Virus record (IMG/VR): IMGVR_UViG_3300014202_000529
Span: 1-64,000 of that record
Strand: one strand, 5' to 3'
DNA length: 64,000 nucleotides
DNA from: a virus
Lineage: Duplodnaviria > Caudoviricetes
In this document: positions 1 to 61,336 of the stretch, piece by piece
How the letters are laid out: every line of letters starts with the position of its first letter
How positions within the stretch are numbered: position 1 is the first letter of the stretch
Made by a program: the position numbers and the translations under genes
The notes under the pieces: model-generated
Told to the model about the DNA's origin: nothing
The model's input: only the letters and a program-made list of their open reading frames with translations
Database searches by the model: none

Positions 1-1800
1 AAAGGTTATAAATGGTGTGTATCTGACCAAATCGGCATTACAAATAATACTGAATCTTGCTAAACATGGAACTGGGGGGACTGTGTTTTTCAAATCCACC
101 AAACTTGTTGTAATAAAAATACTCTGATTGTTTGGGGACCATGCGCGCCAGTCTTCATGAAATGACATCATCATGGTTCGATTGACCTGGGTGTATTCTT
201 TCAGTCTACTACTTCCATTGGTGCAAGCATAACTTACTAGTGCTTTTTTAGTATACCCTGACGGGAGAACCACTGCAGTATTGTTCGTCATCATGTGGGT
301 TCTAAAAAACAAATCACTAGTTCCCGTTCCAAGGCCACTGACCATATTTGCAGAAACCGTCCAGGCACCAGTGACAACATTAAAGGATCTTGAGTCACCA
401 AACCCAATATGAATATCTGTTTGAGAGGTTGGTTTGGGAACACTGTAACCTATCGATGCCATCCAAAATTGCTGGTTGGGTGGGAATACCGTTGGTGCAA
501 GGTTGCCCACAAAGGTCATGGAGTTAGAATCTGAAGTCAAAGATGTATTGATGGACCAATCACCATTCATGACGATATGATATCTGTCCCCTTGAGTTAA
601 AACCGCCTGTGTATCGAAGACATAGTGACCAGGATAGATGGCAGTTGACATCTCACTAAGGTTAAATGACCGACTAGTTGCAAGAACAACCCCACTAGCG
701 TTACCAGAACCATCATCCGGTTCAATGGTCATCCATACGTTACCACTGAATGATGTTGCACCAACAGTTGATGCTTGAATCATATCTACCGCTCTAAGTG
801 GACCAGTGACCCCAGGAACAAAACTTTGTGAGATTTTGGTGTTGTATCTTTCTAGTGGTGTGGTGATGAATGTATCACTGCGGCGCAAATACTGAACACG
901 CGATGCAGTTGATTGATATAACCATTCTTCCCCTACCATAGTTGGCCATGCTTGGTCAATTTCACGATTTACAGACCTATGAAGGAGTAAGGATTTGCTG
1001 TCGGTGTCTGGGTTGTAGATAGCATATACCTCATACCAGGAGTTGGCTGCAAGGGAGCTGTTTGTGTCACGCCCCCCAGCACCAGTGCTCATGAGATTGG
1101 CAGTTAGGTTTTCCCACCCAGTAACAAACTCCCCAGTTTCCATTTCTATTGCGTCTGCCACCTTTAAATGAACGGTGGTTTGTTTTCGATAAGGATGTTC
1201 ATGACTACCAATGAGCATTCCAAATGTGCTCTGATTTAATCTTGGTGAGTCTTTCCAAACTACTTTTTGTGGGGTAGAGTAATCGATGCTCAATACCTGA
1301 CCATCCGACCCAACAGGTAGGCGGACTGCAGTATTTGTGCTTACGCCGACTAATAAGTCCCCCTTCTCTAAAAATAAATTTGCGGTGGTGTCAAATCCAC
1401 TACCACCCGCAATAGATGAAATAGCATTGTCAACATACTCTTTATTCACCACACTTGAGTTTGATATTGGGGTGTTTGGGGTTACCCCATATACAATGGT
1501 TAGGTTTCCAATGTTTGAAATATCCAAAATGATATTGTTCCCAGTAACCGTATTTGCGGTGAGCACGTTGATGGAGGCATTCGAAACTATAGCGGTGTTG
1601 ATCATGCCAGTTTTCACATTAAGGGAGTCGAATTCATAGACGATATCATATTGTTCATTAGATGTATTATATTTTAATGTTCCCCCCCAATCGACGGTGT
1701 TAGCAACCACATCTACCTTAAAGCTTGTGTCTGACGGCACAGCGGGTACTGGTAAATTTGGTTGGGGGAGTTGTGGTGTAGGTATCCAAACAAACGACAT
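1..1800 (-). CDS. tail fibre-like protein, paralogue 4 (runs off window)
   Basis: Not in the ORF track. ATG at 1800 gives MSFVWIPTPQLPQ...; shares NKEYVD, GDLLVG, GAGGRD and WYEVYAI motifs with the three neighbouring paralogues. Confidence 0.7.
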   Translation of the reverse strand, partial: MSFVWIPTPQLPQPNLPVPAVPSDTSFKVDVVANTVDWGGTLKYNTSNEQYDIVYEFDSLNVKTGMINTAIVSNASINVLTANTVTGNNIILDISNIGNLTIVYGVTPNTPISNSSVVNKEYVDNAISSIAGGSGFDTTANLFLEKGDLLVGVSTNTAVRLPVGSDGQVLSIDYSTPQKVVWKDSPRLNQSTFGMLIGSHEHPYRKQTTVHLKVADAIEMETGEFVTGWENLTANLMSTGAGGRDTNSSLAANSWYEVYAIYNPDTDSKSLLLHRSVNREIDQAWPTMVGEEWLYQSTASRVQYLRRSDTFITTPLERYNTKISQSFVPGVTGPLRAVDMIQASTVGATSFSGNVWMTIEPDDGSGNASGVVLATSRSFNLSEMSTAIYPGHYVFDTQAVLTQGDRYHIVMNGDWSINTSLTSDSNSMTFVGNLAPTVFPPNQQFWMASIGYSVPKPTSQTDIHIGFGDSRSFNVVTGAWTVSANMVSGLGTGTSDLFFRTHMMTNNTAVVLPSGYTKKALVSYACTNGSSRLKEYTQVNRTMMMSFHEDWRAWSPNNQSIFITTSLVDLKNTVPPVPCLARFSIICNADLVRYTPFITF

Positions 1801-3620: not shown

Positions 3621-5549
3621 TTAAAACTCCACTGTGGAAACGTAAAAGGACATTGAGGTTGAGTGTATGTAGATGTTTGCACACTGCTCTTCTACGAAAA
3701 TGGGTCCAATAGCTGTTAGGAAGGTCCCACCCCCACCACCATTTGCTCGAACTGTTCCGTCTGATTCCATAAAGGAAAAGTTACCACCCATGCTCGCTTC
3801 AAATGATGTTGGGGGTCCGATTATGAATGGGCTCGCCTGGGTTCCGCCAGTATTCTCCTGAGCATTGAACATCACTGTGCATGGAATTGGGGGTACCCCG
3901 TAGATTATATCTATTGCATGAGAAATTTGTGATGTATTAACGGGAATCATACCAAATGGGAAATATGATGCTGAACTTGTCACTAAATCAAAAAACCTCC
4001 ATTGGATGTGAAAGGGAGCAGTTATTTTTCGATCCCTCTGTGAGTATTCTTTCAGTGAACCGAATATATCGGTAGCTGCATAGCTCACCAAGCACTTTTG
4101 TGTATAACCAGTTGGCATTGTTACTGGGGTATTATTTCCTTCAATAAACACCCGAATATATAAACTATTCGCCCCTGATGGTGTGGTTTGGGTTCCCAGT
4201 GCCCAATCACCAGTGCTTGCACGATACACCACGCAATTACCACCCTGCGGAAACCCTGTGCTAAGGATGCTACCTGGCAACATCATATAATTATCATTTG
4301 CGAAGCTACCCTGCGCATAATCATTATTAATGACCAATACATATCTACCATTTGACACCAAGTTTACACCATCCCTAAAAATAAAACGAGTTCTTACTCC
4401 TGAAGTACTTACATTTGCAATTTCAATTGCATGCCGAATGTCACTAGTACACAGAGTGATTGTGTTGGGGAAACCATTCGCTTCCTGTTCATGGAGAGTC
4501 AACCAACAAAACCCATCGGGAACACCACGGCGACGTATTAATATGTCGGCACTTCTAATTTTACCATCTACAGGTGAAGTGAACTGCTGACCGATCAGTG
4601 GTGTTACGTTGCCACTTGGACCGAGATAATATTCGGTGTTGAGAAATTGATAAACTTGTCCAAATTGTCCGGGTACCGATGTATTTGAACTGACATGGGG
4701 TCTGCTATCCAAAGACTTATGGAACATTAGTGCCCTATCATCGGTTACTGGGTTTCTGATTGCATATAGCTCATACCACGTATTGGATTCTGGGGACCCA
4801 ACATCAAGCCCACCAGCACCGGTTGTATTGATGTCCGCACTCATGATAGACCAGTTGTTTGTGATCGATCCGTCATCCATGACAATTTCTGCTGCTCGGT
4901 AGAGTGTGACAACAGAATTACATAGTGGATAATTTCTACTTGTACCTAGATGGAGATTTCTAAATGATGATCCTTGAGGGAAAATAGAGGACTTCCATTG
5001 GACCATTGTGTTTACTGAAGGAGTTACGGTTAATAAGTCTGTTGTGTTGGACCCTATTGCAACCCTATTTGCGGTGTTATCCGCAACACCAGCAAGAAGG
5101 TCCCCAGCTTGAAGAATGAGAAGCTGTAAATTTCCACCAATCGGGGATGAATTTGCAATGAGTTGATCAACATATTCTTTTGTTGCAAGATGTAAGTTGG
5201 CAGTGGGATATGTGTTTGAGAGTAGATATTGAACGTTTAAATTTGCAATATGAGCAGTATCTATTGCTGATGTGTTGATTGACGCATTGTTGAGCGACGC
5301 ATTGTTCGCAAATACGTTGTTGCCATTTAATTGTGTGATATTAAATTGGTCAACATTCAGAGAGTTGTATTGGCAAACTATGACATATTTGGTGTTTGGG
5401 GTAACATATTTGATGGTGCATGGTGGGGGTGGATGAACCTGGACAGAATTCGCCACCAACCCAACCTGAGTTGACACAGTGTTAGGACCATAGAATAGCG
5501 GCTCCACCTGGGGAGGGGTTTGTGGTTCATTGACCCATACAAATGGCAT
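3621..5549 (-). CDS. tail fibre-like protein, paralogue 2
   Basis: 642 aa; same MPFVWVNEPQ start and motif order as 1809..3620. Confidence 0.7.
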   Translation of the reverse strand: MPFVWVNEPQTPPQVEPLFYGPNTVSTQVGLVANSVQVHPPPPCTIKYVTPNTKYVIVCQYNSLNVDQFNITQLNGNNVFANNASLNNASINTSAIDTAHIANLNVQYLLSNTYPTANLHLATKEYVDQLIANSSPIGGNLQLLILQAGDLLAGVADNTANRVAIGSNTTDLLTVTPSVNTMVQWKSSIFPQGSSFRNLHLGTSRNYPLCNSVVTLYRAAEIVMDDGSITNNWSIMSADINTTGAGGLDVGSPESNTWYELYAIRNPVTDDRALMFHKSLDSRPHVSSNTSVPGQFGQVYQFLNTEYYLGPSGNVTPLIGQQFTSPVDGKIRSADILIRRRGVPDGFCWLTLHEQEANGFPNTITLCTSDIRHAIEIANVSTSGVRTRFIFRDGVNLVSNGRYVLVINNDYAQGSFANDNYMMLPGSILSTGFPQGGNCVVYRASTGDWALGTQTTPSGANSLYIRVFIEGNNTPVTMPTGYTQKCLVSYAATDIFGSLKEYSQRDRKITAPFHIQWRFFDLVTSSASYFPFGMIPVNTSQISHAIDIIYGVPPIPCTVMFNAQENTGGTQASPFIIGPPTSFEASMGGNFSFMESDGTVRANGGGGGTFLTAIGPIFVEEQCANIYIHSTSMSFYVSTVEF

Positions 5550-43430: not shown

Positions 43431-44633
43431 CTACCCCTTCATGCAAAGAACCTGTCGGAGTTCTGCAACCACCTTTACAAGATCCGTCTGATCTGACATA
43501 ACCTGATCAATTGACTTATACGCTGCTGGAATCTCATCAATGACCCCCGCATCTTTACGGCAGACAATCCCCTCAGTCTGTTTCGCAACATCCTCAACCG
43601 TATACTTTTCCTTCGCTGCTCCCCTTGACAGGACCCTACCTGCACCATGTGAGCATGAACAGAATGAGTCTTTGTTGCCCAATCCCTCTACGATGTAGGA
43701 GCGAGTTCCCATAGATCCTGGGATAATTCCAAAATCACCCACGCGAGCACGAACTGCCCCTTTGCGAGTGACAATCACATTCTCACCAAAATGGTTCTCT
43801 CGCTCTGCATAGTTGTGGTGACAATTCACTGTCAAAAGTGGTGTAATATCGGGCGCATGGTCCTTATCAGAACCATACAACGCTTCGGACAATGAAGACA
43901 TTGCCAAAGACATCATAAGCTCACGATTCCTCATAGCATAGGACTGAGCCCACTGCAAATCTTGCCAATACTCGTTGAACAATTTATGACCTTCTGGAAG
44001 GTATGCAAGGTCTGGATTTTCTAGCTTGATCATGAATGCTTTCATTAAGTCTTTTGCTCGATCAATGTAATAATTTCCAATGACGTTACCAATTCCACGC
44101 GAACCTGAGTGGAGCATGATCCACACTTGATCCTGGGTATCGAGGCACACTTCAACGAAATGATTCCCCCCACCCAACGTTCCGAGTTGAGCCAACATTT
44201 TGCTCTCACGATCCTTTTGTATTTCCTCTGGTAAACTCTTGAACCCAATCATTCCATGCCAATAGAGGGTGGATAATATGGGGGTTTTGTGTTGGTCCTG
44301 TCCAACCGGAATTTTCTTAGAGAGGATCGAAAATAAATTATCTAAGTTATCATCTAAATCATTGGAATTCAACGGCAACTTTGCTGCCATCATCCCGCAA
44401 CCAATATCAACCCCAACTGCTGCAGGGGAAAGTGCTCCCTTTGTTGCCACAACAGATCCTACCGTAGCACCCTTACCAAAGTGAACATCGGGCATGGCAG
44501 CAACATGCTTGAAAACAAATGGAAGTCCCGCAGTCTGACGTAGTTGTGTCTCAGACTTGGTGTCTACGTTATGAGTCCAGATCTTGACCGGAACTGTTTG
44601 CTTTTCACCTGTTAACACTTTTGCGATTGGCAT
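43431..44633 (-). CDS. rtcB: RNA ligase RtcB
   Basis: MPDVH.G.G, VGVDIGCG, LGTLGGGNHF, HSGSRG, HHNY, IPGSMG, SHGAGR and DE.P.AYK motifs. Confidence 0.96.
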   Translation of the reverse strand: MPIAKVLTGEKQTVPVKIWTHNVDTKSETQLRQTAGLPFVFKHVAAMPDVHFGKGATVGSVVATKGALSPAAVGVDIGCGMMAAKLPLNSNDLDDNLDNLFSILSKKIPVGQDQHKTPILSTLYWHGMIGFKSLPEEIQKDRESKMLAQLGTLGGGNHFVEVCLDTQDQVWIMLHSGSRGIGNVIGNYYIDRAKDLMKAFMIKLENPDLAYLPEGHKLFNEYWQDLQWAQSYAMRNRELMMSLAMSSLSEALYGSDKDHAPDITPLLTVNCHHNYAERENHFGENVIVTRKGAVRARVGDFGIIPGSMGTRSYIVEGLGNKDSFCSCSHGAGRVLSRGAAKEKYTVEDVAKQTEGIVCRKDAGVIDEIPAAYKSIDQVMSDQTDLVKVVAELRQVLCMKG

Positions 44634-44634
44634 C

Positions 44635-45027
44635 TTAATCCCCTTGGTTATTGATTCCCCTCAGTGTAGCAAACTCCATTTCCCTTGTCAAGTGTTGGTC
44701 ATTTAGCCACGCGAGGTATTTTTTAAGGTCCTTGTTCCGTTGAGTCCAATATTCATCATAGCAAAATTCGTTAAATAGCATCGGTTCAGACAAGATCACT
44801 TGTCCATCCCCATCACACATCATGCAAGGCATATCCGGTAGACCAACATAATCAGGGTCAACACCAGACCCCATACACACTTCACATGTGCCACATGTGG
44901 GTTCGGTGGCACTATATCGACCAGATTGTTCGAACAATTCTTTCAGATCTGTTCGATGGAGTCTAACCCAATCCTTTTCTTGGAGAAGGTCAACTTTAAA
45001 AGACGTAGACATTTCGTACCTTTTCAT
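44635..45027 (-). CDS. DnaJ-type zinc-finger protein
   Basis: CEVCMGSG ... CMMCDGDG. Confidence 0.65.
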   Translation of the reverse strand: MKRYEMSTSFKVDLLQEKDWVRLHRTDLKELFEQSGRYSATEPTCGTCEVCMGSGVDPDYVGLPDMPCMMCDGDGQVILSEPMLFNEFCYDEYWTQRNKDLKKYLAWLNDQHLTREMEFATLRGINNQGD

Positions 45028-45193
45028 AGTGTTCCATGATCCACTTGACCTGGCGTTCCGATAGGGATTTGTGGGCGAACCCAGTTACCGTGTTGAGTAG
45101 TACCACATCATTATGGGTTACCTTTAGATCCTGTTTGTGGTTACTCCATGTTAGTACTAAATCCTTGTCCGAATGCACATCATCAGTTTGCAT
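44996..45193 (-). CDS. hypothetical protein
   Basis: GGAGG RBS; coupled. Confidence 0.5.
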   Translation of the reverse strand: MQTDDVHSDKDLVLTWSNHKQDLKVTHNDVVLLNTVTGFAHKSLSERQVKWIMEHYEKVRNVYVF

Positions 45194-45209
45194 AATCCCC
45201 CTCCAAAGG

Positions 45210-45626
45210 TTATCGACCACCAACCAAGCTCTCTAGCTCTCTCTGCGCCCATTTCATGTACTCTGCACCTTCATGCGTATGAAAGAAATAATCAACATTT
45301 CCCTGTCTCAGTGTCTCAATCATATAAAGGGACTTTTTGTAGTTTTCTCTCTTCTTTTGTATATCTGCCTGTTCCTTTTGGAATAAGGATATAGCTTTTA
45401 GTTTTTCTGTCTCTTCTTCACAAACCTCATCCTCAAGTGAACTGATCATATTTTGAAGTGATTGTATCTCAGACTTCAGCCCATCATTCTCAGATTTTAC
45501 TGAAACCAAACTCTCTTCTGCTTGTCTCCGAAGCTCTTGAGAAGACCGTAGATCAAGTTTCAGATTATGAATATGATCCCTCAGATCTTCAATCTGTTCG
45601 AGCAGGTTATCTGTTGCTTTACTCAT
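45210..45626 (-). CDS. coiled-coil protein
   Basis: 138 aa, heptad-rich. Confidence 0.65.
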   Translation of the reverse strand: MSKATDNLLEQIEDLRDHIHNLKLDLRSSQELRRQAEESLVSVKSENDGLKSEIQSLQNMISSLEDEVCEEETEKLKAISLFQKEQADIQKKRENYKKSLYMIETLRQGNVDYFFHTHEGAEYMKWAQRELESLVGGR

Positions 45627-46821
45627 AATCCCTAACCGCTATCCCAACTGGGAAAATCGGAATACCTTCATCCGAAAGGGTTTGGTAACGAACGGTCAAT
45701 TGCTTCCCCATATATGATTTTCTGTTGTTCCACTGCTCTTCTCTCTCTACCATCGTAGCTTTACAGCGGACATCAAATGTTCCATCACCATATACCCCAC
45801 CGGTTTTTGATGAGGTTTGGCAACGAAAGATTGCTTTATGTTCGTCTTTACCCCTTCCATCCTTACATCCAACGATTTCAAATTCTTCATCGACAAAATC
45901 TTTATATTTCTGCAACTGGTTGTCTCGATACTGAAACCGATAAGCGTCATTCGAATCTGAGCGCACAATGGACCCCTCATACCCCTGCTCAACAAATATA
46001 CCATGCATCGCTTTCATTTCTGTCTCGTTCAGAACCACTACAGTTTTAACAAACGAGAGATAGGGGACGTTAAGACTGTTTGGGAGTTTCCCATGCCACA
46101 GGATATACCGCTTCTTAAACCCACCCTCTGAAGACGCTCGATCATAACAATGAAAGTGGACATGTTTCTTTAGTGTGTCAATGTCTGGGGTCTTTTCGTC
46201 CTTAATTGCAGAGATAAGCTGCTGGAAAGTCAAATCCCCATGATTATACATTTCACCATCAAGTATCTCACCATCCTTCATGAAAGAAAGAAACTGAGGG
46301 TTCATGTACAAGCTGAAGTTCTTATAGATTTTTCCTTTCCTGGACCAATAGAAAATATTATCTCCCTTACGCTCAACCAAGCAACGAACACCATTCAACT
46401 TTGGTTGGACGAATGCGGGCCACTGTATATACTTTTTCCGCTCGTTGAATTTTTGTGCCAACATCGGTAGAAGTTTGGAACCACCAACAGAACTTCCATC
46501 ATTGTCCTGTTCGTCTGTACCTTCACCAGACTTAGGAACAACCTCTGAATAATTCTTGTCATACTGCTTCTTTAATTTTGACTCCGCTTCCAAGCATGCT
46601 TGCACGAAATGATCCGTCTCGTTGGAGCGACCGATGTTTTTCCCCTCGGTGACCGTCTGGTGTGAAATCTGCATCTTCCCATTCATTTGACCGTGCTTGG
46701 TGAAAATGACAGAAGAATCCACTTTCCTCTCAACCCAAATCGTCCATACCTTCACCACACCTTTTGAGGAAAGACCATAGAGGATTGGATAGGTGGAAAT
46801 ATCGGGCATATTATTCTCCAT
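45619..46821 (-). CDS. ATP-dependent DNA ligase
   Basis: PMLA, QPKLNGVR, LDGEMY, GYEGSIVR, K.K.F.D.EF motifs; C-terminal OB fold. Confidence 0.92.
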   Translation of the reverse strand: MENNMPDISTYPILYGLSSKGVVKVWTIWVERKVDSSVIFTKHGQMNGKMQISHQTVTEGKNIGRSNETDHFVQACLEAESKLKKQYDKNYSEVVPKSGEGTDEQDNDGSSVGGSKLLPMLAQKFNERKKYIQWPAFVQPKLNGVRCLVERKGDNIFYWSRKGKIYKNFSLYMNPQFLSFMKDGEILDGEMYNHGDLTFQQLISAIKDEKTPDIDTLKKHVHFHCYDRASSEGGFKKRYILWHGKLPNSLNVPYLSFVKTVVVLNETEMKAMHGIFVEQGYEGSIVRSDSNDAYRFQYRDNQLQKYKDFVDEEFEIVGCKDGRGKDEHKAIFRCQTSSKTGGVYGDGTFDVRCKATMVEREEQWNNRKSYMGKQLTVRYQTLSDEGIPIFPVGIAVRDYE

Positions 46822-47752
46822 TTTTCTGATGTGTCAGCTCAATGATCTCAAATAGAAGATTATCGCATCTATCTTCATTTACTGTCTCTGGTAGTATGGA
46901 CCGTTCTGATAGTTTTTCCAACGAATCCATTAGTTCTTCAAGCATCGGGGATACATCTTTAAAATGCAGCTCACCGGCTTTTATTTTTTTGAGAAAATCA
47001 ACTTGCTTCAGTGGATAGGTGAAATCACCATCAGTCAAGATGTCCTTGATTTGGTACCCTGCTCGAAATGCATGTGAGATTGCCTTCCAGTCAATTCCCT
47101 GATTGGTTTCTGCTTGTCTTGCTCGCTCTCCAAACATATCAACAAAGTGTTCCACCATATCAACATAATTGGTGGTGGTTGCATTCAGTGTCATCTTCTT
47201 TCCGCAGACCTGGTAAAACTTTCCATCTTCTGATGGTCCACAGTGCTCTCCAACCGGAAGAAGGTTGATGATGTTACCAATCTTCTCTTTGGGGTGCAAA
47301 TGCAATGCTTCGAGAACAAGCTTCGCGTCTGCTAAACGAGACCCCTTGATGCCATATTTTGCTGCCTGACTCTTTGCATACCCAACAAATGAAGAGAGTT
47401 TTCTAGTATAGAAAATGTGTCGTTGTTGGTGTATTAGATCCCATGCGAGGGTTGGTTGTATCCAATATTGCCGGGGTGCATGGAGCATGTCGAGGGCAAC
47501 CGTCTCACCTTTTTTGGCAAGTTCAAAGAAGTATTGGATGGAATAGAATTCCCTATCTGTGTCAGAAGATGTGTTTTTTGCGTGGCTGTGAGACTTGGTG
47601 TTGCAAGAAATGCTCTTTGGTGTTTGACCCAGATACATTTCTCGTTTTGTCGGAAGGAAGACCCCCTTATAATCCTTATCGGATGAGGGGGTATCGGTAC
47701 CATAAAGATGGGACCCAAAAACCATTTCCACTATGATATGCTTGTCATTCAT
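46811..47752 (-). CDS. Pol-beta superfamily nucleotidyltransferase (T4 NrdC.11-like)
   Basis: FGSHLYGT.TP.SD.DYKG and DWKAISHA.R motifs. Confidence 0.85.
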   Translation of the reverse strand: MNDKHIIVEMVFGSHLYGTDTPSSDKDYKGVFLPTKREMYLGQTPKSISCNTKSHSHAKNTSSDTDREFYSIQYFFELAKKGETVALDMLHAPRQYWIQPTLAWDLIHQQRHIFYTRKLSSFVGYAKSQAAKYGIKGSRLADAKLVLEALHLHPKEKIGNIINLLPVGEHCGPSEDGKFYQVCGKKMTLNATTTNYVDMVEHFVDMFGERARQAETNQGIDWKAISHAFRAGYQIKDILTDGDFTYPLKQVDFLKKIKAGELHFKDVSPMLEELMDSLEKLSERSILPETVNEDRCDNLLFEIIELTHQKNGE

Positions 47753-49006: not shown

Positions 49007-49081
49007 TGGTGGACCCTGTAGGTGCTGCCCCTACTGCCTCCGCAGTGTCAATGCGGCACTCTGCTGGTGAGCTAAGGGTCC
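49007..49081 (-). tRNA. tRNA-Val(GAC)
   Basis: CCGCA-TTGACAC-TGCGG anticodon arm; CCA; T-loop GGCAGCA. Confidence 0.88.
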
Positions 49082-50236: not shown

Positions 50237-50570
50237 TGGTGGAGGTGCGGGGCATTGCATCCCCGGTCCAAAAGTACTCTTGAAGTAGGATCTCCATGCT
50301 AATCAATCATTCTACGATCAACTGTGGATTGATACACGGTTGAAAGTTTTGAGGATAAATCTCGTATTCAGTACACCCCCAACTCCTGAATACCAGTCTG
50401 AATTTACGCCTCCCCACTTACAGACTTACATGAGTTGGCGCGAAGTGCGATTAAGCAGCGACGAGTTCTAGTTCTGCAGCAATTAATTGCTTCCATGTTG
50501 TTAACGGAGCCACGGAACTCCGGCATGCCCTCTCATTCTCCAGTTACCCCTGTCGATACTGTTCACCCCC
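50237..50570 (-). ncRNA. ssrA: tmRNA
   Basis: 5' GGGGGTG...TCGAC and 3' CACCTCCACCA with G3-U70; tag frame GCT GCA GAA CTA GAA CTC GTC GCT GCT TAA (AAELELVAA*). Confidence 0.95.
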
Positions 50571-51325: not shown

Positions 51326-53161
51326 TTAATGAAAACAAATATATTCTCGTTGAGCATTTGCTGACATTTGCCACCACATTCCTAGTCCACATTGGGTTGC
51401 GCTAGCTGCATCATTAATGAACTCAAATTTCGATGCTTCTATTTCGAAATTATTTGTGCAAATATCATCCGAACAACTTGTCTCAAAATCTACAACAGAT
51501 TTAAACCCAAAGGATCGATACATTATAGGCAAGTGACCATTTGATACTATAAACCTATTCTTTCGTATAGTTTGTGCCCCAACGTTCAACTTATTTGGAA
51601 GATAGAGTGCCGCGTATTCTGCACCAGGGGTATCAAGTCCTCCACAATTTATAAATATATTTTCCTCAATTATATGATTGGAATTTGTAAAGTTACTAGC
51701 ATTAAATGATATGCATGGACTGGTTGTATTGTTTAGAAAAATATTCCGCTTAACAATATTGCCCTGTGAAGGTCCAGCATATCCCTGAAACTCAAGAACT
51801 TGTGAAATATTCTTCTTGGTAAGAAAAATCCCACCAATTCTTTGATTGGTGAATAAATTACCCTCAAGAAGATTTCCATTTCCATTAAACTGTGCGCGTA
51901 CAGTCATATTGACTATTTTATTATTCCGAAACACATTACCTGTTGCTGCATTTAATCTAGAACCATCAATACCAAATGGACGACAATATTCAACAAACCA
52001 CCGACATGTAAATACTGTGTTTGATACAACATTATTTCTAATCGTTGTTGTTCCGCGAAGTGCCTCCACACTAAATCCAGTGTGTTGCCAATCAATAATA
52101 ATTAGATCATGAAACGAGTTATCATGCGACCCTTCAGAGAGAAGAATTCCATCACCAGTTACTCCATTGAATTCGTGTGCGTAGCCGGCGATTGATTCGG
52201 GTAGTCTTGGATCGATATTACAATTAAAAATTTCAATATTCCTTGATTCTGTACCTGTCCCTCTGCCGGTTGAATCTGTGATATACACCCCACGATGGGA
52301 CCATCGCCCAATTTCACAGTCATTTGTTGTTTTTAATCCAAAAATCCGTATATCTGTCGCGCCTAAAATATAAACAGAACCAAGTCCACCACCACCAACA
52401 TTTGGATTTATAATATCAAAAAACTTATTATTTGCCCTCATAAAACAAAGGGCAGAAAACGAACAGGGTACATTGGTAGATGAGAGAGTTTTAACCACCA
52501 TCAATTTTATTGATGGATTTGATGTCGATGGTAAATATAATCGTTTATTGGGGGCATCAAACCACCATCCGCGAACCGGACCATTTGGTGTTGAGGATTG
52601 ACCCAAGAGAGACTTTACCTCAGACTGCATATGTTCAATGTCATTTAACCACACTCTTTTTGGTGGGTTAATATACGATGGTAGAGAAAGGTACCAAACA
52701 CCTTCACTTTCTTTTACCCAGTTGGCAGCCTGCAGCGCCTCGGTTAAAATTGTTTGATTAAGAATTCTACCTGGATTTCTGGGACAATCGAAACGAATTG
52801 TAATATGTCTGTCCGGCGTACCGGATGCAGAGGGTCCGACTAGAAATCCAGTAGTATGTAACCCACACACATAGACTGTATCCCCGGCATCAATTCCTGT
52901 TACTGGAGTCCAATTCAACCCACTGTCGGTTGAATTGAATGCACCACTCCCCCCCAATGATTCTGCGCATTCATATGAGAGTCCATTACCGTTAATGGAA
53001 CACTCTACTTTTGGTCTCACATACCACGTATTGTTGGCTTCAGACCCAACCAATGCTGGTGCTGGCGGATTAAGTGGGGTCCAAGATGCCCCCATAACTG
53101 TATATTGAACAAGAAACAATGATGAGGTTATTATTAAAAATAATATTGACAATAATTTCAT
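51326..53161 (-). CDS. exported parallel beta-helix (pectate lyase-like) protein
   Basis: Hydrophobic N-terminus (MKLLSILFLII...); WYVRP...GNG.SY, AGDTVYVCG and repeated N-x-(I/F)-x-x-N turns. Confidence 0.75.
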   Translation of the reverse strand: MKLLSILFLIITSSLFLVQYTVMGASWTPLNPPAPALVGSEANNTWYVRPKVECSINGNGLSYECAESLGGSGAFNSTDSGLNWTPVTGIDAGDTVYVCGLHTTGFLVGPSASGTPDRHITIRFDCPRNPGRILNQTILTEALQAANWVKESEGVWYLSLPSYINPPKRVWLNDIEHMQSEVKSLLGQSSTPNGPVRGWWFDAPNKRLYLPSTSNPSIKLMVVKTLSSTNVPCSFSALCFMRANNKFFDIINPNVGGGGLGSVYILGATDIRIFGLKTTNDCEIGRWSHRGVYITDSTGRGTGTESRNIEIFNCNIDPRLPESIAGYAHEFNGVTGDGILLSEGSHDNSFHDLIIIDWQHTGFSVEALRGTTTIRNNVVSNTVFTCRWFVEYCRPFGIDGSRLNAATGNVFRNNKIVNMTVRAQFNGNGNLLEGNLFTNQRIGGIFLTKKNISQVLEFQGYAGPSQGNIVKRNIFLNNTTSPCISFNASNFTNSNHIIEENIFINCGGLDTPGAEYAALYLPNKLNVGAQTIRKNRFIVSNGHLPIMYRSFGFKSVVDFETSCSDDICTNNFEIEASKFEFINDAASATQCGLGMWWQMSANAQREYICFH

Positions 53162-53657: not shown

Positions 53658-53734
53658 TGGAGCCGCTTGTTGGACTTGCACCAACCATCTCCACTTTACC
53701 AAAGTGGCGTGTCAACTACCTCTACTTAAGCGGC
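53658..53734 (-). tRNA. tRNA-Thr(GGT)
   Basis: CCACT-TTGGTAA-AGTGG; CCA. Confidence 0.88.
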
Positions 53735-53741
53735 GTAAACT

Positions 53742-53749
53742 TATTTATA
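53742..53749 (-). promoter_or_regulatory. T4-type late promoter inside the tRNA array
   Basis: Exact TATAAATA just upstream of tRNA-Thr(GGT). Confidence 0.6.
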
Positions 53750-53751
53750 AA

Positions 53752-54063
53752 ATAGGACAACATGTAAGCGGCGTTCTGTTTACAATCATCATTTCTCTAG
53801 GAGTATCATTACTGATACCCTCAAGCTGCCTACCCGCGAGTTTTGTACGAGCAGTACACTCGCCTATTTGGCATTGCACCAGGTAGAGATTGCCCGTTTC
53901 ACTTCCTCATCATCGAGGAGCGATGAACCCCCTCATTGATGATGATTACTCGTCTCTGTAGCTCTAATCATCAGGTTACCCTGTGTGGTCGTTAACCACT
54001 ACCATGCTCTAGGTGCGCCGACTTTCCTCTAGCTGTGTGCTAGCGATGATTCTGTTGTCCTAT
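53752..54063 (-). ncRNA. rnpB: RNase P RNA
   Basis: P1 ATAGGACAACA/TGTTGTCCTAT; GAGGAAAGTC, ACAGAGAC, GTGAAACGG and AACAGAACGCCGCTTA conserved regions in the expected order. Confidence 0.93.
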
Positions 54064-54077
54064 AATCTCCTTTCATG

Positions 54078-54154
54078 TGGTACCTGGGGTGGGACTCGAA
54101 CCCACAGGAATCTGTTTTTGAGACAGACATGTTTGCCAATTACATCACCCAGGC
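54078..54154 (-). tRNA. tRNA-Leu(CAA), no long variable arm
   Basis: TCTGT-CTCAAAA-ACAGA; CCA. Confidence 0.9.
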
Positions 54155-54909: not shown

Positions 54910-54984
54910 TGGTGGGTTGGCTAGGTACTGCCCCTAGTTCCTCCGGTTAAAAGCCGGGAGCTTCACTTACAAAGCTTACAACCC
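54910..54984 (-). tRNA. tRNA-Lys(TTT)
   Basis: Loop CTTTTAA; T-loop GGCAGTA; CCA. Confidence 0.88.
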
Positions 54985-54991
54985 AAAATCG

Positions 54992-55122
54992 CTTGCATTG
55001 CTACCGTTACAACAAAAAGACTGTTACCCACTGTCTCTGATGCATGCAGGGATTCTTCCTCTCTAGAATCAGAAGAATCTATCGTGGATACCGTCTTCTA
55101 CGGAGTTGAACCGTTCCGCAAG
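54992..55122 (-). ncRNA. circularly permuted tRNA-like RNA A
   Basis: CTTGC-GGA-ACGG TTCAACT CCGT-AGAAGAC...GTCTTTT-TG-TTGT AACGGTA GCAA-T-GCAAG. Confidence 0.7.
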
Positions 55123-55141: not shown

Positions 55142-55217
55142 TGGAGCGGGCTATGGGAATTGCACCCATACGTCCAGGTTGGAAGCCTAGCATGCTGCTG
55201 TTGAACATCAAGCCCGC
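55142..55217 (-). tRNA. tRNA-Gly(TCC)
   Basis: CTAGG-CTTCCAA-CCTGG; CCA. Confidence 0.9.
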
Positions 55218-56779: not shown

Positions 56780-57091
56780 CTATCGTGCATGTTTAGGTAA
56801 TATTTCAGGGAAATACCTAGGGCACAAATAAACCATCAGTATCACAACAATAATACTAGAACCCCCCAAACCAAAGACCACGGACCAATCCCAATCCAAC
56901 CCCCACCCTCTAATAGTGGTGAAAGTTATAGATTTTCCTATGATAACCCCCAGACCCAACCAAATAGCAAACCAAAGTAACCAATCAGAAACCATAGCAA
57001 CAAACATTCCACAAACAATAAACAATGCTCCCATAGTTTTCCCAACAACCCCAAATTCATCAAGCAACTCATTAAGTTGATTGTCATTCAT
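56780..57091 (-). CDS. membrane protein
   Basis: About three hydrophobic segments. Confidence 0.65.
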   Translation of the reverse strand: MNDNQLNELLDEFGVVGKTMGALFIVCGMFVAMVSDWLLWFAIWLGLGVIIGKSITFTTIRGWGLDWDWSVVFGLGGSSIIVVILMVYLCPRYFPEILPKHAR

Positions 57092-57608
57092 TACAAAGCT
57101 CCCCATTAAACCATTTAAAACGTAACTTAACTTCTTCTAGAGCAATGGGTTTATATTCGGTCTGCTCAACACAAACACACACATACCACGGATCATCTAG
57201 AACATTTGCATGTGTGTGACCATGAACATTTGCAACAAATCTTCCCTTACTCTCAGGATGCACTGGAATATGGGATAACAGCATCCTATCGAGAATGTGA
57301 TATCCTCGAATATCACGAAAATGCTTCAGGTAATCGGTGATCTTGAAGATATCATGATTACCCTTAATTAAAACCTTGTCACCATTCAATCGTTGCAAAA
57401 CCGCTAATGCTTTTCTAGCAATAACCACATCCCCCAGGTGATACACTTTATCATTCGGACGGACAACCTTGTTCCATTCCTGGATCATGTATTCATCCAT
57501 TTCCTCTGGTGAATCCCACGGTCTCAGTTTGGTACCGTCATTTCTGAGGAACTTACAGACCCCAGCATGACTAAAATGTGTATCGGCTGTAAGAAATATG
57601 TTACTCAT
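57084..57608 (-). CDS. calcineurin-like phosphoesterase
   Basis: ADTHFSH, YHLGD, KGNHD, LSHIP and HGHTH motifs. Confidence 0.9.
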   Translation of the reverse strand: MSNIFLTADTHFSHAGVCKFLRNDGTKLRPWDSPEEMDEYMIQEWNKVVRPNDKVYHLGDVVIARKALAVLQRLNGDKVLIKGNHDIFKITDYLKHFRDIRGYHILDRMLLSHIPVHPESKGRFVANVHGHTHANVLDDPWYVCVCVEQTEYKPIALEEVKLRFKWFNGELCNE

Positions 57609-58439: not shown

Positions 58440-58468
58440 ATTCTAACACACCATCGGGAACATGTCAA
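58440..58468 (-). promoter_or_regulatory. sigma70-type promoter
   Basis: TTGACA-17-TAGAAT with TGTG extended -10. Confidence 0.78.
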
Positions 58469-58657: not shown

Positions 58658-59116
58658 TTAAAATTTCTTACTGACTTCATTTGAAAGGGGACTCAAGTTT
58701 CCCTTTGCATCCTTCGCTTTCAGTGCAAAGTAATATGTAGCACCTTTCAAGATCCCTGTCAACTTCAATTCTGTTACTAACCCAATTTCAATTGGTGTCT
58801 GATACTTTCCCGGCTCCAGACCCCAATACACCAGATACCCACTTGTTACCCCATCAACCGGTGGAGCCCATGTTAATGTTGCTTCCCCCATAATCACTAC
58901 AGGTGGGGTTGCTGCTGCGATTTCAGCAAGCATTGCATCTTTACCACCAGGATTCGACCATGATTTACCTACAAACTTACCAGAGTGGCATTCATATACA
59001 TTCGACTTATTGTTGTTATGACACCCATATGAATCCAATGCACCAGCATGTGGAAACGCTGAGGAGGCACTAAGGAATAAGAACAATGTGGCAACCACAC
59101 TCACTATAATATTCAT
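58658..59116 (-). CDS. exported YHYH-like plus fibronectin type III protein
   Basis: Signal peptide; H.G.LD.YGCH...Y.CH; TLTW.P, GY.VYWG, TYYFA..A.D..GN.S..S motifs. Confidence 0.8.
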   Translation of the reverse strand: MNIIVSVVATLFLFLSASSAFPHAGALDSYGCHNNNKSNVYECHSGKFVGKSWSNPGGKDAMLAEIAAATPPVVIMGEATLTWAPPVDGVTSGYLVYWGLEPGKYQTPIEIGLVTELKLTGILKGATYYFALKAKDAKGNLSPLSNEVSKKF

Positions 59117-59130
59117 ACATCCTCCGGTTA

Positions 59131-59204
59131 TGGTGGCGGTAGAAGGAGTTGCACCTTCTCAGTACGACTTATGAAATCGTCTGGCTGCGCTTGTGCTTAC
59201 CGCC
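59131..59204 (-). tRNA. tRNA-Met(CAT), elongator-type (Ile2 not excluded)
   Basis: ACGAT-TTCATAA-GTCGT; G1-C72; irregular D arm; CCA. Confidence 0.75.
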
Positions 59205-59210
59205 TTTATA

Positions 59211-59286
59211 TGGTAGCGGGTTAACGAGTTGCACGTTAAACTCAAGGTTATGAGCCTTGACGGGTCGCTGTCCCCTTCCACCCGCA
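59211..59286 (-). tRNA. tRNA-Met(CAT), initiator-like
   Basis: 1:72 mismatch; CAAGG-CTCATAA-CCTTG; CCA. Confidence 0.8.
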
Positions 59287-59300
59287 AATTTTAAAACTGA

Positions 59301-59416
59301 GAGGCCGTGCTTCCGTTACACCACATTCCTACGTTACCGATCTTACTGGTGGCCATCCAGGAGTCTTAATTCATGATCGGTGTTCAGAACAATCGGATTT
59401 GAACCGTTCCTGCCCC
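59301..59416 (-). ncRNA. circularly permuted tRNA-like RNA B
   Basis: GGGGC-AGGA-ACGG TTCAAAT CCGA-TTGTTCT...GGAATG-TG-GTGT AACGGAA GCAC-G-GCCTC. Confidence 0.68.
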
Positions 59417-59420
59417 GTTA

Positions 59421-59497
59421 TGGTGCCTCTGGTAGGACTCGAACCTACACTAAACAGGCTCTCGACCTGCCGACTCTGCCAATTGGTCTACAGAGGC
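59421..59497 (-). tRNA. tRNA-Leu(GAG), no long variable arm, C33
   Basis: GCAGG-TCGAGAG-CCTGT; CCA. Confidence 0.85.
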
Positions 59498-59501
59498 GAA
59501 A

Positions 59502-59579
59502 TGGTCTGGGCGGCAGGATTTGAACCTGCGATTTCTCGCCTCCAAAGCGAGAGGAGTGGCCGGACTCTCCTACACCCAG
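59502..59579 (-). tRNA. tRNA-Pro(TGG)
   Basis: CTCGC-TTTGGAG-GCGAG; A37; CCA. Confidence 0.9.
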
Positions 59580-59587
59580 ATATATTT

Positions 59588-59662
59588 TGGCGCTCCTTGT
59601 GGGTATCGATCCCACTTCATATGCTTGAAAGGCATATATCCTAGCCAGTAGACGAAAGGAGC
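59588..59662 (-). tRNA. tRNA-Glu(TTC)
   Basis: TATGC-CTTTCAA-GCATA; CCA. Confidence 0.92.
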
Positions 59663-59670
59663 AAAAATTT

Positions 59671-59744
59671 TGGTGGACCTTGACGGTAACCCTCCGTCCC
59701 CGCCCGGGTGCAAACCGGGAATGCTCGTTCAACACCTAAGGCCC
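59671..59744 (-). tRNA. tRNA-Ala(TGC), divergent copy
   Basis: G3-U70; CCCGG-TTTGCAC-CCGGG; T-loop AGGGTTA; CCA. Confidence 0.8.
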
Positions 59745-59747
59745 AAT

Positions 59748-60005
59748 ACCCACCATTTAACCTCCACGAAGCAGGAGGCACCATCTTTCTGGGGTCCATA
59801 AGGAGAGTCCCAGAAATTAAGCTGGTGGACTTACTTACCGTCTAAGGGTATCTAGTGAACCAATCTAGCCCTTTATCGGCTACGGAGCGATCCACAACCC
59901 CTAGACTACCTCTATCTATGTAACCCCCGCACCACGTCTTTGAAGCCGATCCAATCCAATTTAACGGCGCGAGCGACTTCCTCTAACAATGATACTGAGG
60001 GGTCC
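59748..60005 (-). ncRNA. about 260-nt structured RNA, unknown function
   Basis: ATCGGCT/AGCCGAT, TTTCTGGG/CCCAGAAA, GCCTCC/GGAGGT and CACCA/TGGTG stems. Confidence 0.5.
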
Positions 60006-60079
60006 TGGGGTGATCGGTGGGTAATGCTCCCACTTTTCCTGGGCCACAACCAGGCGCATTTCTTTTATGCTACGACCAC
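60006..60079 (-). tRNA. tRNA-His(GTG)
   Basis: CCTGG-TTGTGGC-CCAGG; C73; -1 position is T; CCA. Confidence 0.85.
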
Positions 60080-60084
60080 AACTG

Positions 60085-60275
60085 ATCCACTATTTTTCAA
60101 GTGGAAATTGTTACCCCTTTACCCCACCGTGCGTAATGAGAACCACCGCAACAAAGGCAGTGGAAGAGATAACTCCATCGATCCGGGTCTCATGGAGCCG
60201 GAAATTGCGGGCATTTGATGGGTAGCGCCCTACTACCTTAGTGCAGTCTTCCTCTTGCGGAGTAGTTTCTGCCAC
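60085..60275 (-). ncRNA. about 190-nt tandem-pseudoknot RNA, unknown function
   Basis: GCAG/CTGC with CTAC/GTAG; GGTAG/CTACC with GGGC/GCCC; TCCGG/CCGGA with CTCCAT/ATGGAG; CCACTGC/GCGGTGG; TCCACT/AGTGGA. Confidence 0.5.
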
Positions 60276-61261: not shown

Positions 61262-61336
61262 TGGTGGAGGCTGGCGGTTCTGCCCCGCCGACTTCTCGGT
61301 GCAAGCGAGATGGTTTCCTAATTAGCCTAAGCCCCC
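61262..61336 (-). tRNA. tRNA-Ala(TGC)
   Basis: G3-U70; TCTCG-CTTGCAC-CGAGA; T-loop GGCAGAA; CCA. Confidence 0.88.

Follow-up and report, generated by a model that had tools for sequence, protein, structure and literature searches.

A permuted tRNA-like element kept by compensatory change within the tRNA array of a T4-type phage

Y RNAs are two-module tethers in which a Ro60-binding stem is joined to an effector module, and in YrlA the effector module mimics a transfer RNA (tRNA). Here we describe an element of 116 nucleotides (nt), copy B, which carries such a tRNA-like module and lies at positions 59301-59416, on the minus strand, of a stretch of 64,000 nt (the window; positions 1 to 64,000 of IMG/VR record IMGVR_UViG_3300014202_000529). 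The window is part of a complete virus record of 168,789 bases with direct terminal repeats, and this genome encodes the T4-type proteins gp32, gp59, gp8, gp53, baseplate proteins, PhoH and RNase H. The parts of copy B are in tRNA register, and they have been kept by compensatory change at the same position of the tRNA array in related phages. From the sequence comparisons we conclude that copy B is a selected RNA and not tRNA debris, and that it is probably a small-RNA gene, whose product, set free by tRNA processing, would be a tRNA-elbow mimic that stands alone and acts without Ro60.

Copy B and YrlA's tRNA-like domain

The architecture of copy B has already been described, as the tRNA-like domain found in YrlA-type RNAs, a likeness that went unnoticed in the original prediction, which had been made from the letters of the window. 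According to the available portions of two studies (PMC4201824, 10.1101/312249), YrlA has a stem formed from its ends, (V), a T arm, a closed acceptor-like stem-loop and a D arm in the same order as copy B, and it shares with copy B a variable acceptor-arm length and the absence of a free CCA and of an anticodon loop; some Y RNAs adjoin tRNA genes. YrlA (Rfam RF02553; Chen et al. 2014, PMC4201824) is encoded beside a Ro60/Rsr (TROVE) gene, binds Ro60 and is a substrate of TruB and DusA; the available text of 10.1101/312249 (structure of Wang et al. 2018) likens it to circularly permuted tRNAs with closed acceptor stems. A canonical T-loop/D-loop elbow is also common to both, made in copy B by the T loop TTCAAAT and the D loop AACGGAA with its GG, together with U8-N9 and N26. 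Copy B and a sister element, copy A, differ from YrlA in lacking the long Ro60-binding stem and the GNCGAAN0-1G motif, the closing helix of copy B being of 5 base pairs (bp) only; in sitting in a tRNA array with spacers of 4-22 nt, in a genome without a Ro60/TROVE or DUF2828/DUF7788 gene; and in their long acceptor arm (separating the T arm from the D arm by 70 and 86 nt in the two copies), where a conserved motif and a palindromic loop are found. The kind of RNA is thus known, and what is found here is a Ro-less form of it, without the stem module, placed in a phage tRNA array and provided with a long conserved acceptor arm. In a literature search, with the supplementary phage-YrlA tables of PMC4201824 outside its range, no paper came up that describes permuted tRNA mimics without Ro in the tRNA arrays of phages.

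Read on the minus strand, copy B runs from the closing helix through the T arm and a capped acceptor arm to the D arm, and every motif and helix named in the original prediction of a permuted tRNA mimic was found in place. In the closing helix, GGGGC (59412-59416), which is followed by AGG and is equivalent to the 3' strand of an anticodon stem, pairs at 5/5 positions with GCCTC (59301-59305), and the latter is preceded by a G (59306) at the N26 place. The T arm, AACGG-TTCAAAT-CCGAT (59392-59408), has a canonical T loop and one A-A mismatch in its stem. Next comes the 3' strand of the acceptor-like helix, TGTTCTG (59385-59391, then AAC), which pairs with AGGAATG (59324-59330); after the latter strand, TG (59322-59323) stands at the U8-N9 place. 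This helix had been noticed to be the weaker one of the two copies, and so it is, since 6/7 positions are paired and three of these pairs are G-U. Between its two strands a 7-bp extension stem, ACCGATC/GATCGGT (59375-59381 with 59336-59342, present in both the minimum free energy (MFE) fold and the centroid fold), encloses the conserved single-stranded motif GAATTAAGACTCC (59360-59372) and a distal hairpin, CTGG-ATGGCCA-CCAG (59346-59360), whose loop contains the 6-nt palindrome TGGCCA. The 3' strand of the extension stem overlaps a GGTAAC that is shared with copy A, and AACGT follows it. The D arm, GTGT-AACGGAA-GCAC (59307-59321), has A14 and GG, and an A/U-rich 3' tail of 14-15 nt, TCAGTTTTAAAATT(T) (59287-59300), reaches from the end of the element to the next tRNA.

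Copy A (54992-55122, minus strand) is 131 nt long. The two copies had been said to share their architecture, a 17-mer and GGTAAC, and to differ in their paired strands, and a reading of both bears this out: the parts of copy A are in the same order, with the closing stem CTTGC/GCAAG, the D arm TTGT-AACGGTA-GCAA, a clean 7-bp acceptor-like helix (AGAAGAC/GTCTTTT), a second 7-bp helix (TATCCAC/GTGGGTA) and the distal hairpin CTG-CATGCAT-CAG with the palindrome ATGCAT. The 17-mer GGAACGGTTCAANTCCG (59394-59410 in copy B, 55101-55117 in copy A) has exactly two occurrences in the window, both on the minus strand, and the 168,789-base genome as a whole adds no other, the chance expectation being 0.02, and two or more matches were seen in 0/100 shuffles. 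When IMG/VR was scanned for exact matches, 86 stretches with the 17-mer were obtained, nearly all of them ordinary tRNAs or coding DNA, and a downstream D-arm motif was present in a single one, a 91-kb contig (L023). At 1-817 (minus strand) of that contig, repeat units of ~100 nt (..AAATGCC.AG.GGGATTACATC..) stand before several tRNA-half-like pieces. These include what looks like a permuted tRNA (a T arm with the acceptor 3' strand, a linker, then the acceptor 5' strand, D arm and anticodon arm) and a minimal T-arm/D-arm element with the 17-mer of the window; ARAGORN sees one tRNA there, and ribozyme- or intron-flanked permuted tRNAs are a possible description of this region.

Standard tools gave no call at either copy. 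With all 4227 Rfam families, nothing was matched at A or B at the gathering score, nor at E <= 5 over the array, and the sole match of copy B alone at E <= 10, PyrR209 (11.9 bits, E 6.9), is noise. ARAGORN likewise called no gene at A or B; as run, neither ARAGORN nor Rfam looks for permuted genes. For annotation this means that RNA genes in phage tRNA arrays escape both tRNA finders and Rfam.

The order of the parts raises the alternative that copy B is a true circularly permuted tRNA gene, as in the red alga Cyanidioschyzon merolae, where the 3' half also precedes the 5' half, the acceptor end of the precursor is closed and the ends pair. The C. merolae genes reportedly yield decoding tRNAs via a circular intermediate, through a splicing endonuclease and a ligase, in work said to be that of Soma et al. 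in 2007. For copy B, a working tRNA would result from joining of the ends into an anticodon loop (e.g. by the RtcB of the phage), opening of the acceptor arm through RNase P and 3' processing, and CCA addition. The complete tRNA register, including U8, A14, GG and N26, speaks for this alternative, as do the 7-bp acceptor-like helix of copy A, the RtcB gene 15 kb away and the RNase P RNA that the phage encodes. Furthermore, the available text of PMC4201824 describes how the M. smegmatis YrlA, which has a 7-bp stem, undergoes RNase P cleavage and acquires CCA, and that of 10.1101/312249 raises the possibility. Copy B differs from the C. merolae genes in having neither an anticodon loop nor CCA. 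Its joined ends would leave TAAC plus TCAGTTTTAAAATT(T), i.e., ~19 nt instead of a 7-nt loop, and these flanks are of the wrong length, are not conserved and differ among the orthologues described below. No 7-bp acceptor with discriminator and CCA is formed either: the acceptor 3' strand is followed by AACACC in copy B and by GGTATCC in copy A, though the neighbouring tRNAs encode CCA. Without an anticodon loop and a CCA end, copy B cannot be charged or decode. In addition, the acceptor helix is weak and not conserved in the B lineage, the insert in the acceptor arm has conserved sequence that would be unneeded in an excised spacer, and the tRNAs of the array already serve 20/20 amino acids. 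We know of no endonuclease here that would leave cyclic-phosphate ends at the right places. A functional permuted tRNA is, in our judgement, very unlikely.

Small stable RNAs, namely rnaC and rnaD (species 1 and 2), are also encoded by the tRNA cluster of T4 itself. These were considered as homologues and rejected, as the motifs of A and B are absent from their sequences; moreover, in rnaC the T arm and the acceptor 3' strand are at the 3' end, which is the normal and not the permuted order.

Orthologues and compensatory changes

Related-phage loci (named in the style of L001) were gathered through the phosphoesterase gene at 57084-57608 of the window, and the resulting 80 loci were scanned for a T loop with at least 4/5 pairs in its stem, together with a D stem of 4 bp and a closing stem paired at 5/5 positions. 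This structure scan found an orthologue of copy B at L089 1930-2040, immediately behind tRNA-Leu(gag) and ahead of the tRNA-Met that also follows copy B, and shuffled versions of 1.25 Mb gave 0 matches per replicate. A metagenome scan for the T loop plus GAATTAAGAYTCC, the part of the single-stranded motif that copy B has in common with L089, L353 and L358, gave 10 stretches, of which three are real: L354, which is identical to L089, and L353 and L358. The order tRNA-Leu(gag), element, tRNA-Met is the same in the window (tRNA-Leu(gag) with encoded CCA at 59421-59497, separated from copy B by the 4-nt spacer TAAC; tRNA-Met(cat) at 59211-59286, ~15 nt from copy B; both minus strand), L089, L353 and L358. 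At the same junction of L090, a complete 168-kb genome, and of L091, the same two tRNAs lie side by side, with precisely the element missing, so that it appears as a cassette that comes and goes, like tRNA genes. Its tail goes with it: GTTTTAAAA(A)TTT also follows the L089 orthologue and is absent where the element is absent, the spacer in L090 being AGTTT.

Other scans extended the set by one distant relative. The pattern T loop, 60-90 nt, KTGTAACGG had at least 116 matches, and among the matches listed nine passed the stem tests; seven of these nine overlap ARAGORN tRNAs and the rest are L192, in the L089 contig, and the new L188. The latter, from a GC-rich phage, is an element distantly related to copy B, with the same design, a place between two tRNA-Pro genes and the hairpin CCTGG-TGGCCA-CCAGG. 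The pattern TGGCCACCAG...TGTAACGG gave 23 stretches with one real element (in the contig of L188), and GAATTAAGAYTCC...GTAAGA gave 20 with one real element (in the L089 contig). No match was returned when the 14-kb array was compared with cultured phages by megablast, and a distant blastn search with copy B and its flanks matched only in the tRNA-Leu part (35 records). The homologues on which the original prediction had made its RNA family depend were hence found, as three syntenic orthologues, the L188 element and many T4-like relatives (see the next section). L353 has, between tRNA-Leu(gag) and its B-type element and in tandem with the latter, a second short permuted tRNA-like element (206-289, plus strand); by eye it consists of a T arm, a 7-bp acceptor hairpin with a 10-nt loop, TA and a D arm, without a visible outer stem.

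The four B-lineage sequences (copy B, L089, L353 and L358) were aligned with MAFFT, and pairs were counted in the helices that we had named. As many as 97/100 cells are paired, versus 27.9-45.9% when the partners were slid by 1-3 columns, and the D stem is 100% paired. Changes on both sides were found in 8/25 pairs, versus 0-1 with slid partners and 2.9 +/- 1.3 with shuffled ones, where 1/500 reached 8; two of these pairs are in the closing helix, three in the extension stem, one in the distal hairpin and two in the loop palindrome. The closing helices of the orthologues read GGCAC/GTGCC, GGGGC/GTCCC and GGGAC/GTCCC (2/5 pairs altered on both sides), the extension stem reads ATCAGT(T)/(G)ACTGAT (3/7), and the distal hairpin of L353 and L358 is CTAG-TCTGCAG-CTAG. 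Compensatory changes, which had been proposed from copies A and B, are accordingly seen by these four-sequence pair counts in the B lineage, for the closing and extension stems and for the distal hairpin, and together with the orthologues they support the earlier view of a selected RNA family rather than tRNA debris.

Functionless debris would arise if array recombination left the T-arm half of one decayed tRNA next to the D-arm half of the following one. Phage tRNA arrays do gain and lose genes, tRNA dimers mimic the T-arm to D-arm order (the available text of Chen et al., PMC4201824, gives the same warning) and the folding energy of copy B is unexceptional. Nevertheless, the halves of a dimer are not mutually complementary, while A, B and every orthologue have outer ends that pair at 5/5 positions, with pairing also of the strands that flank the insert; the closing, extension and distal helices are kept by compensatory changes, and the same design recurs in the unrelated GC-rich phage L188. 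Debris is consequently a most improbable account of copy B.

The element might instead act in cis, as a tRNA-shaped punctuation mark that directs the cuts of RNase P and RNase Z in the polycistronic precursor, with no further task for the RNA once it is released. The tRNA-like spacing at which it sits in the array fits this, and tRNA-like structures are so used at the ends of some long non-coding RNAs, as the available text of 10.1101/312249 has it. Against it, both flanking tRNAs are real and supply their own processing sites, L090 and L091 manage the same junction without the element, and a processing mark does not need the conserved single-stranded motif and the distal hairpin in the acceptor arm. 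We hold this explanation to be quite unlikely.

Y-type RNAs of related phages and the wider family

Many related T4-like phages have the same core as copy B, i.e., a T arm, an acceptor hairpin of at most 7 bp, U8-N9 and a D arm that is GTGTAAYGGNAGCAC or canonical. In these relatives the core is set in a covarying 7-bp outer stem (AGGTTAA/TTAACCT, AGGTTTG/CAAACCT, AGGATAC/GTATCCT, GAATGCT/AGCATTC or GGATGC/GCATCC), followed by a conserved NCAGCAA; examples of such Y-type RNAs are L110 10865-10915, L109 16900-16962 and L108 3297-3363. The elements lie beside a protein gene in L110 (10790-12376), L109, L120, L124, L115, L102, L108, L116, L159, L104, L155, L092 and L107, and in L109, L110, L120, L124, L115 and L102 the element is directly upstream of an open reading frame (ORF) with the same starting residues. 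Two or more Y-type RNAs occur at L107, L116 and L120. The translated ORF of L110 has 472 amino acids (aa) with the Pfam domains DUF2828 and DUF7788, and DUF7788 is encoded in 13/15 records with a Y-type element, the two misses being fragments of 5.9 and 8.8 kb.

The DUF2828/DUF7788 phage family is predicted to have the Ro60 fold. An AlphaFold model of the protein, made with 90 diverse homologues, has a predicted local distance difference test (pLDDT) value of 91.4 and a predicted template modelling (pTM) score of 0.91, and 13/13 Foldseek matches of that model at E <= 0.001 are Ro60, Rsr or TROVE chains (best match 1yvr, E 1.9e-8, template modelling score 0.60), the Ro60 of Thermus phage phiLo among them. 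In a language-model look-up, 25/30 of the nearest clusters were TROVE/vWA_Ro60, and mycobacteriophage homologues (32% identity over the full length) are annotated as 'Ro-like RNA binding protein'. A Listeria phage has a protein with an HHpred match to Rsr, encoded at most 2 kb downstream of abundant non-coding RNAs, according to the available text of PMC12282133; to judge from the Listeria-phage matches of the family, this protein would belong to the same family. The family is abundant, as at least 7,917 of the 8,000 scored candidates match at E <= 1e-5 and 710 cultured-phage records have a homologue. The co-occurrence of these elements with a protein of predicted Ro60 fold indicates that the elements of the relatives are phage Y RNAs, of a kind undetected by Rfam, no model of which matches the Y-type RNA of L110, the one tested. 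In T4-like phages of this kind, DUF2828/DUF7788 thus travels with unannotated Y-type RNAs that lie outside the Rfam models.

Copies A and B share with these RNAs the common tRNA-like core, with the D arm GTGTAAYGGNAGCAC, and differ from them in lacking the 7-bp outer stem, NCAGCAA, the short acceptor hairpin and the gene for the Ro60-fold protein. The GNCGAA motif is missing from both copies as well. Across the complete 168,789-base genome, PF05731 (TROVE) had 0 matches (the control was positive in 2/14 genomes), and neither DUF7788 nor a homologue of the Ro60-fold protein of the relatives was found. Searching the same genome for an outer stem plus CAGCAA gave matches at chance level, and in the array, on the right strand, only 51701-51959, which is inside a 627-aa ORF. 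Relatives carry the domain on a stem beside a Ro60-fold protein and this phage carries the domain alone, which leads us to propose that copy B acts without Ro60. The alternative to be weighed here is a Y RNA that still depends on Ro, with the host supplying the Ro60/Rsr protein: in its design the domain is a homologue of the RNAs that accompany Ro in related phages, and the host could encode Rsr. It is opposed by the absence of the module that co-occurs with the Ro60-like gene of the relatives (the 7-bp outer stem and NCAGCAA; in YrlA, the long stem with GNCGAAN0-1G), by tRNAs within 4 and ~15 nt of copy B, and by the absence of a DUF7788 or TROVE gene from 3/3 other orphan-type records examined, among them L089 (30% complete) and L188 (82% complete). 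We give dependence on a host Ro60 very little credence.

A covariance model, R1, was built from seven elements of relatives in other phages, none of them from the window or L089. Its top match in the window is 59301-59416, with the exact ends and at full length (19.6 bits, E 0.0016, a rough value), and it finds L089 1930-2040 at 21.8 bits. Over 82 loci, R1 had 252 matches at E <= 0.05; when the 28 best matches outside the training set were inspected, 19 were seen to overlap two ARAGORN tRNAs and four to overlap one, and five were Y-type RNAs. With the filters off, on 20 small loci, R1 broke the long-armed elements into pieces. A table of 22 family members could be written in a common tRNA register, with a T at the U8 place in 22/22. 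Their T stems have 101/110 cells paired, versus 68.8 with partners shuffled (0/2000 reaching this value), and the closing helix, counted in members that had not been selected on it plus copies A and B, has 56/80 cells paired, versus 43.4 +/- 3.1 in controls scored by an identical best-of-six-offsets rule (0/5000). From the T arm to the D arm, A, B, L089 and L188 have 64-86 nt and the Y-type elements 5-24 nt, a rule to which the second element of L353, with its 7-bp acceptor hairpin and no visible outer stem, is an exception.

Several observations weigh against our interpretation. The covariation in the B lineage comes from few events in four sequences, none of which contradicts the fold, and in all four the acceptor-like helix is weak and variable. 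The T stem of copy B has its A-A mismatch, and the folding energy of copy B, -27.9 kcal/mol, has a z score of +0.50 versus shuffles (-1.52 for copy A). RF02553 (YrlA) found nothing at A or B, its best score in the genome being 17.2 bits, at 54037-54139, versus a gathering score of 69. On copy A, R1 matched the D arm only, at 10.3 bits, and no orthologue of copy A was found: local blastn against the 80 loci of relatives gave chance matches of 14 nt only, and different sequence fills the syntenic gaps of L089 and L090. Finally, ordinary tRNA dimers score up to 44 bits with R1, many of them above the 19.6 bits of copy B; the R1 score alone is hence non-discriminating, and the argument is carried by the complementarity of the closing and acceptor strands and by the orthologues. 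In a gap of L089, between tRNA-Gly(tcc) and tRNA-Pro(cgg) (5112-5216, plus strand), CCAGGATGGCTAGCCACC resembles the distal hairpin of copy B, with other sequence around it.

A putative elbow mimic and its genomic setting

With no anticodon loop and no CCA end, and so no charging or decoding, the most likely role of copy B, by analogy with known RNAs, would be that of a tRNA-elbow mimic, i.e., a decoy or scaffold. Copy B would be co-transcribed with the flanking tRNAs, and the cut of RNase P at the 5' end of tRNA-Met would set its 3' end, while the 3' trimming of tRNA-Leu would free its other end. The released RNA would fold into the L-shape of a tRNA with an intact T-loop/D-loop elbow, in which the 5-bp end helix would stand for the anticodon stem and the acceptor end would be closed and lengthened by the 7-bp helix and the distal hairpin. 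In this form it could titrate, recruit or scaffold a protein or RNA that recognises tRNAs, possibly via the elbow or the T and D stems, and a binding role of this kind is what the available text of 10.1101/312249 proposes for the Y RNA YrlA and its tRNA-like domain. The lengthened acceptor arm, with its conserved motif and palindromic loop, may be a second binding module or a dimerisation module. A phage that retains just the tRNA-like module suggests an independent function for that module, and an array-embedded module, conserved by compensatory change in a complete genome without a Ro60-like gene, offers a simpler system in which to find its partner.

In 6/6 long-armed elements the arm ends in a short hairpin that has a 6-nt palindrome in its 6-8-nt loop. 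The palindrome is TGGCCA in B and L188, CTGCAG in L089, L353 and L358, and ATGCAT in A, and between B and its orthologues it was altered through paired substitutions (helix 5 of the alignment). A palindrome kept through paired changes suggests loop-loop pairing of two molecules. This kissing-loop idea comes from the aligned paired changes only: in an MFE test of the palindromes versus shuffles, in which the L188 slice was misplaced, the palindrome was wholly unpaired in 1/6 elements, RNAfold pairing part of it internally in the rest, so that this test gave no support. A doubtful extension is that A, B, the orthologues and L188 form a Ro60-independent class of tRNA mimics, in which the protein-binding stem of the Y RNAs was lost and the long acceptor arm serves as the second module. 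If this were true, kissing copies would make a two-headed tRNA-elbow decoy or scaffold, and in infected cells the dimer could sequester or bridge a tRNA-recognising factor, such as a host defence enzyme that targets tRNAs, or the RNA-repair or RNase P machinery of the phage.

The tRNA array extends over ~49.0-61.4 kb, all on the minus strand, with 28 tRNAs called by ARAGORN and further Rfam tRNA matches beyond these calls. It also contains a class A RNase P RNA (53749-54062, minus strand; Rfam 208.1 bits, full model) and a transfer-messenger RNA (50237-50570, minus strand; Rfam 100.8 bits). An RNase P RNA borne by a phage beside tRNA mimics is unusual, and a functional link may exist. Directly upstream of the array there is an RNA-repair-type cluster (43431-47752, minus strand) with RtcB (43431-44633; PF01139, E 1.4e-125; 15 kb from the element), an ATP-dependent ligase (45619-46821), an RlaP nucleotidyltransferase (46811-47752) and two small ORFs. 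On the minus strand of 59101-60143, around copy B, neither a sigma-70-like promoter nor a terminator-like site was found. Elsewhere in the array, a near-consensus sigma-70-type promoter (58440-58468, minus strand; TTGACA, 17 nt, TAGAAT, with TG; 11/12) lies just upstream of the genes on the tRNA-Ile(tat) side.

The 340-nt gap between tRNA-Glu and tRNA-His (59664-60005, minus strand) contains further tRNA-like sequences that end in CCA and are called by neither ARAGORN nor Rfam; an example, at ~59665-59745, has acceptor-like pairing and the loop TTTGCAC. Non-canonical T loops, TGCAAnT or GGCAGnA versus TTCRAnY and so without U54-U55, occur in at least seven of the array's tRNAs (61265-61336, 59211-59286, 59134-59204, 55148-55215, 54913-54984, 53661-53734 and 49010-49081, all minus strand). 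ARAGORN, at default settings, missed six of these, and both mimics keep a canonical T loop.

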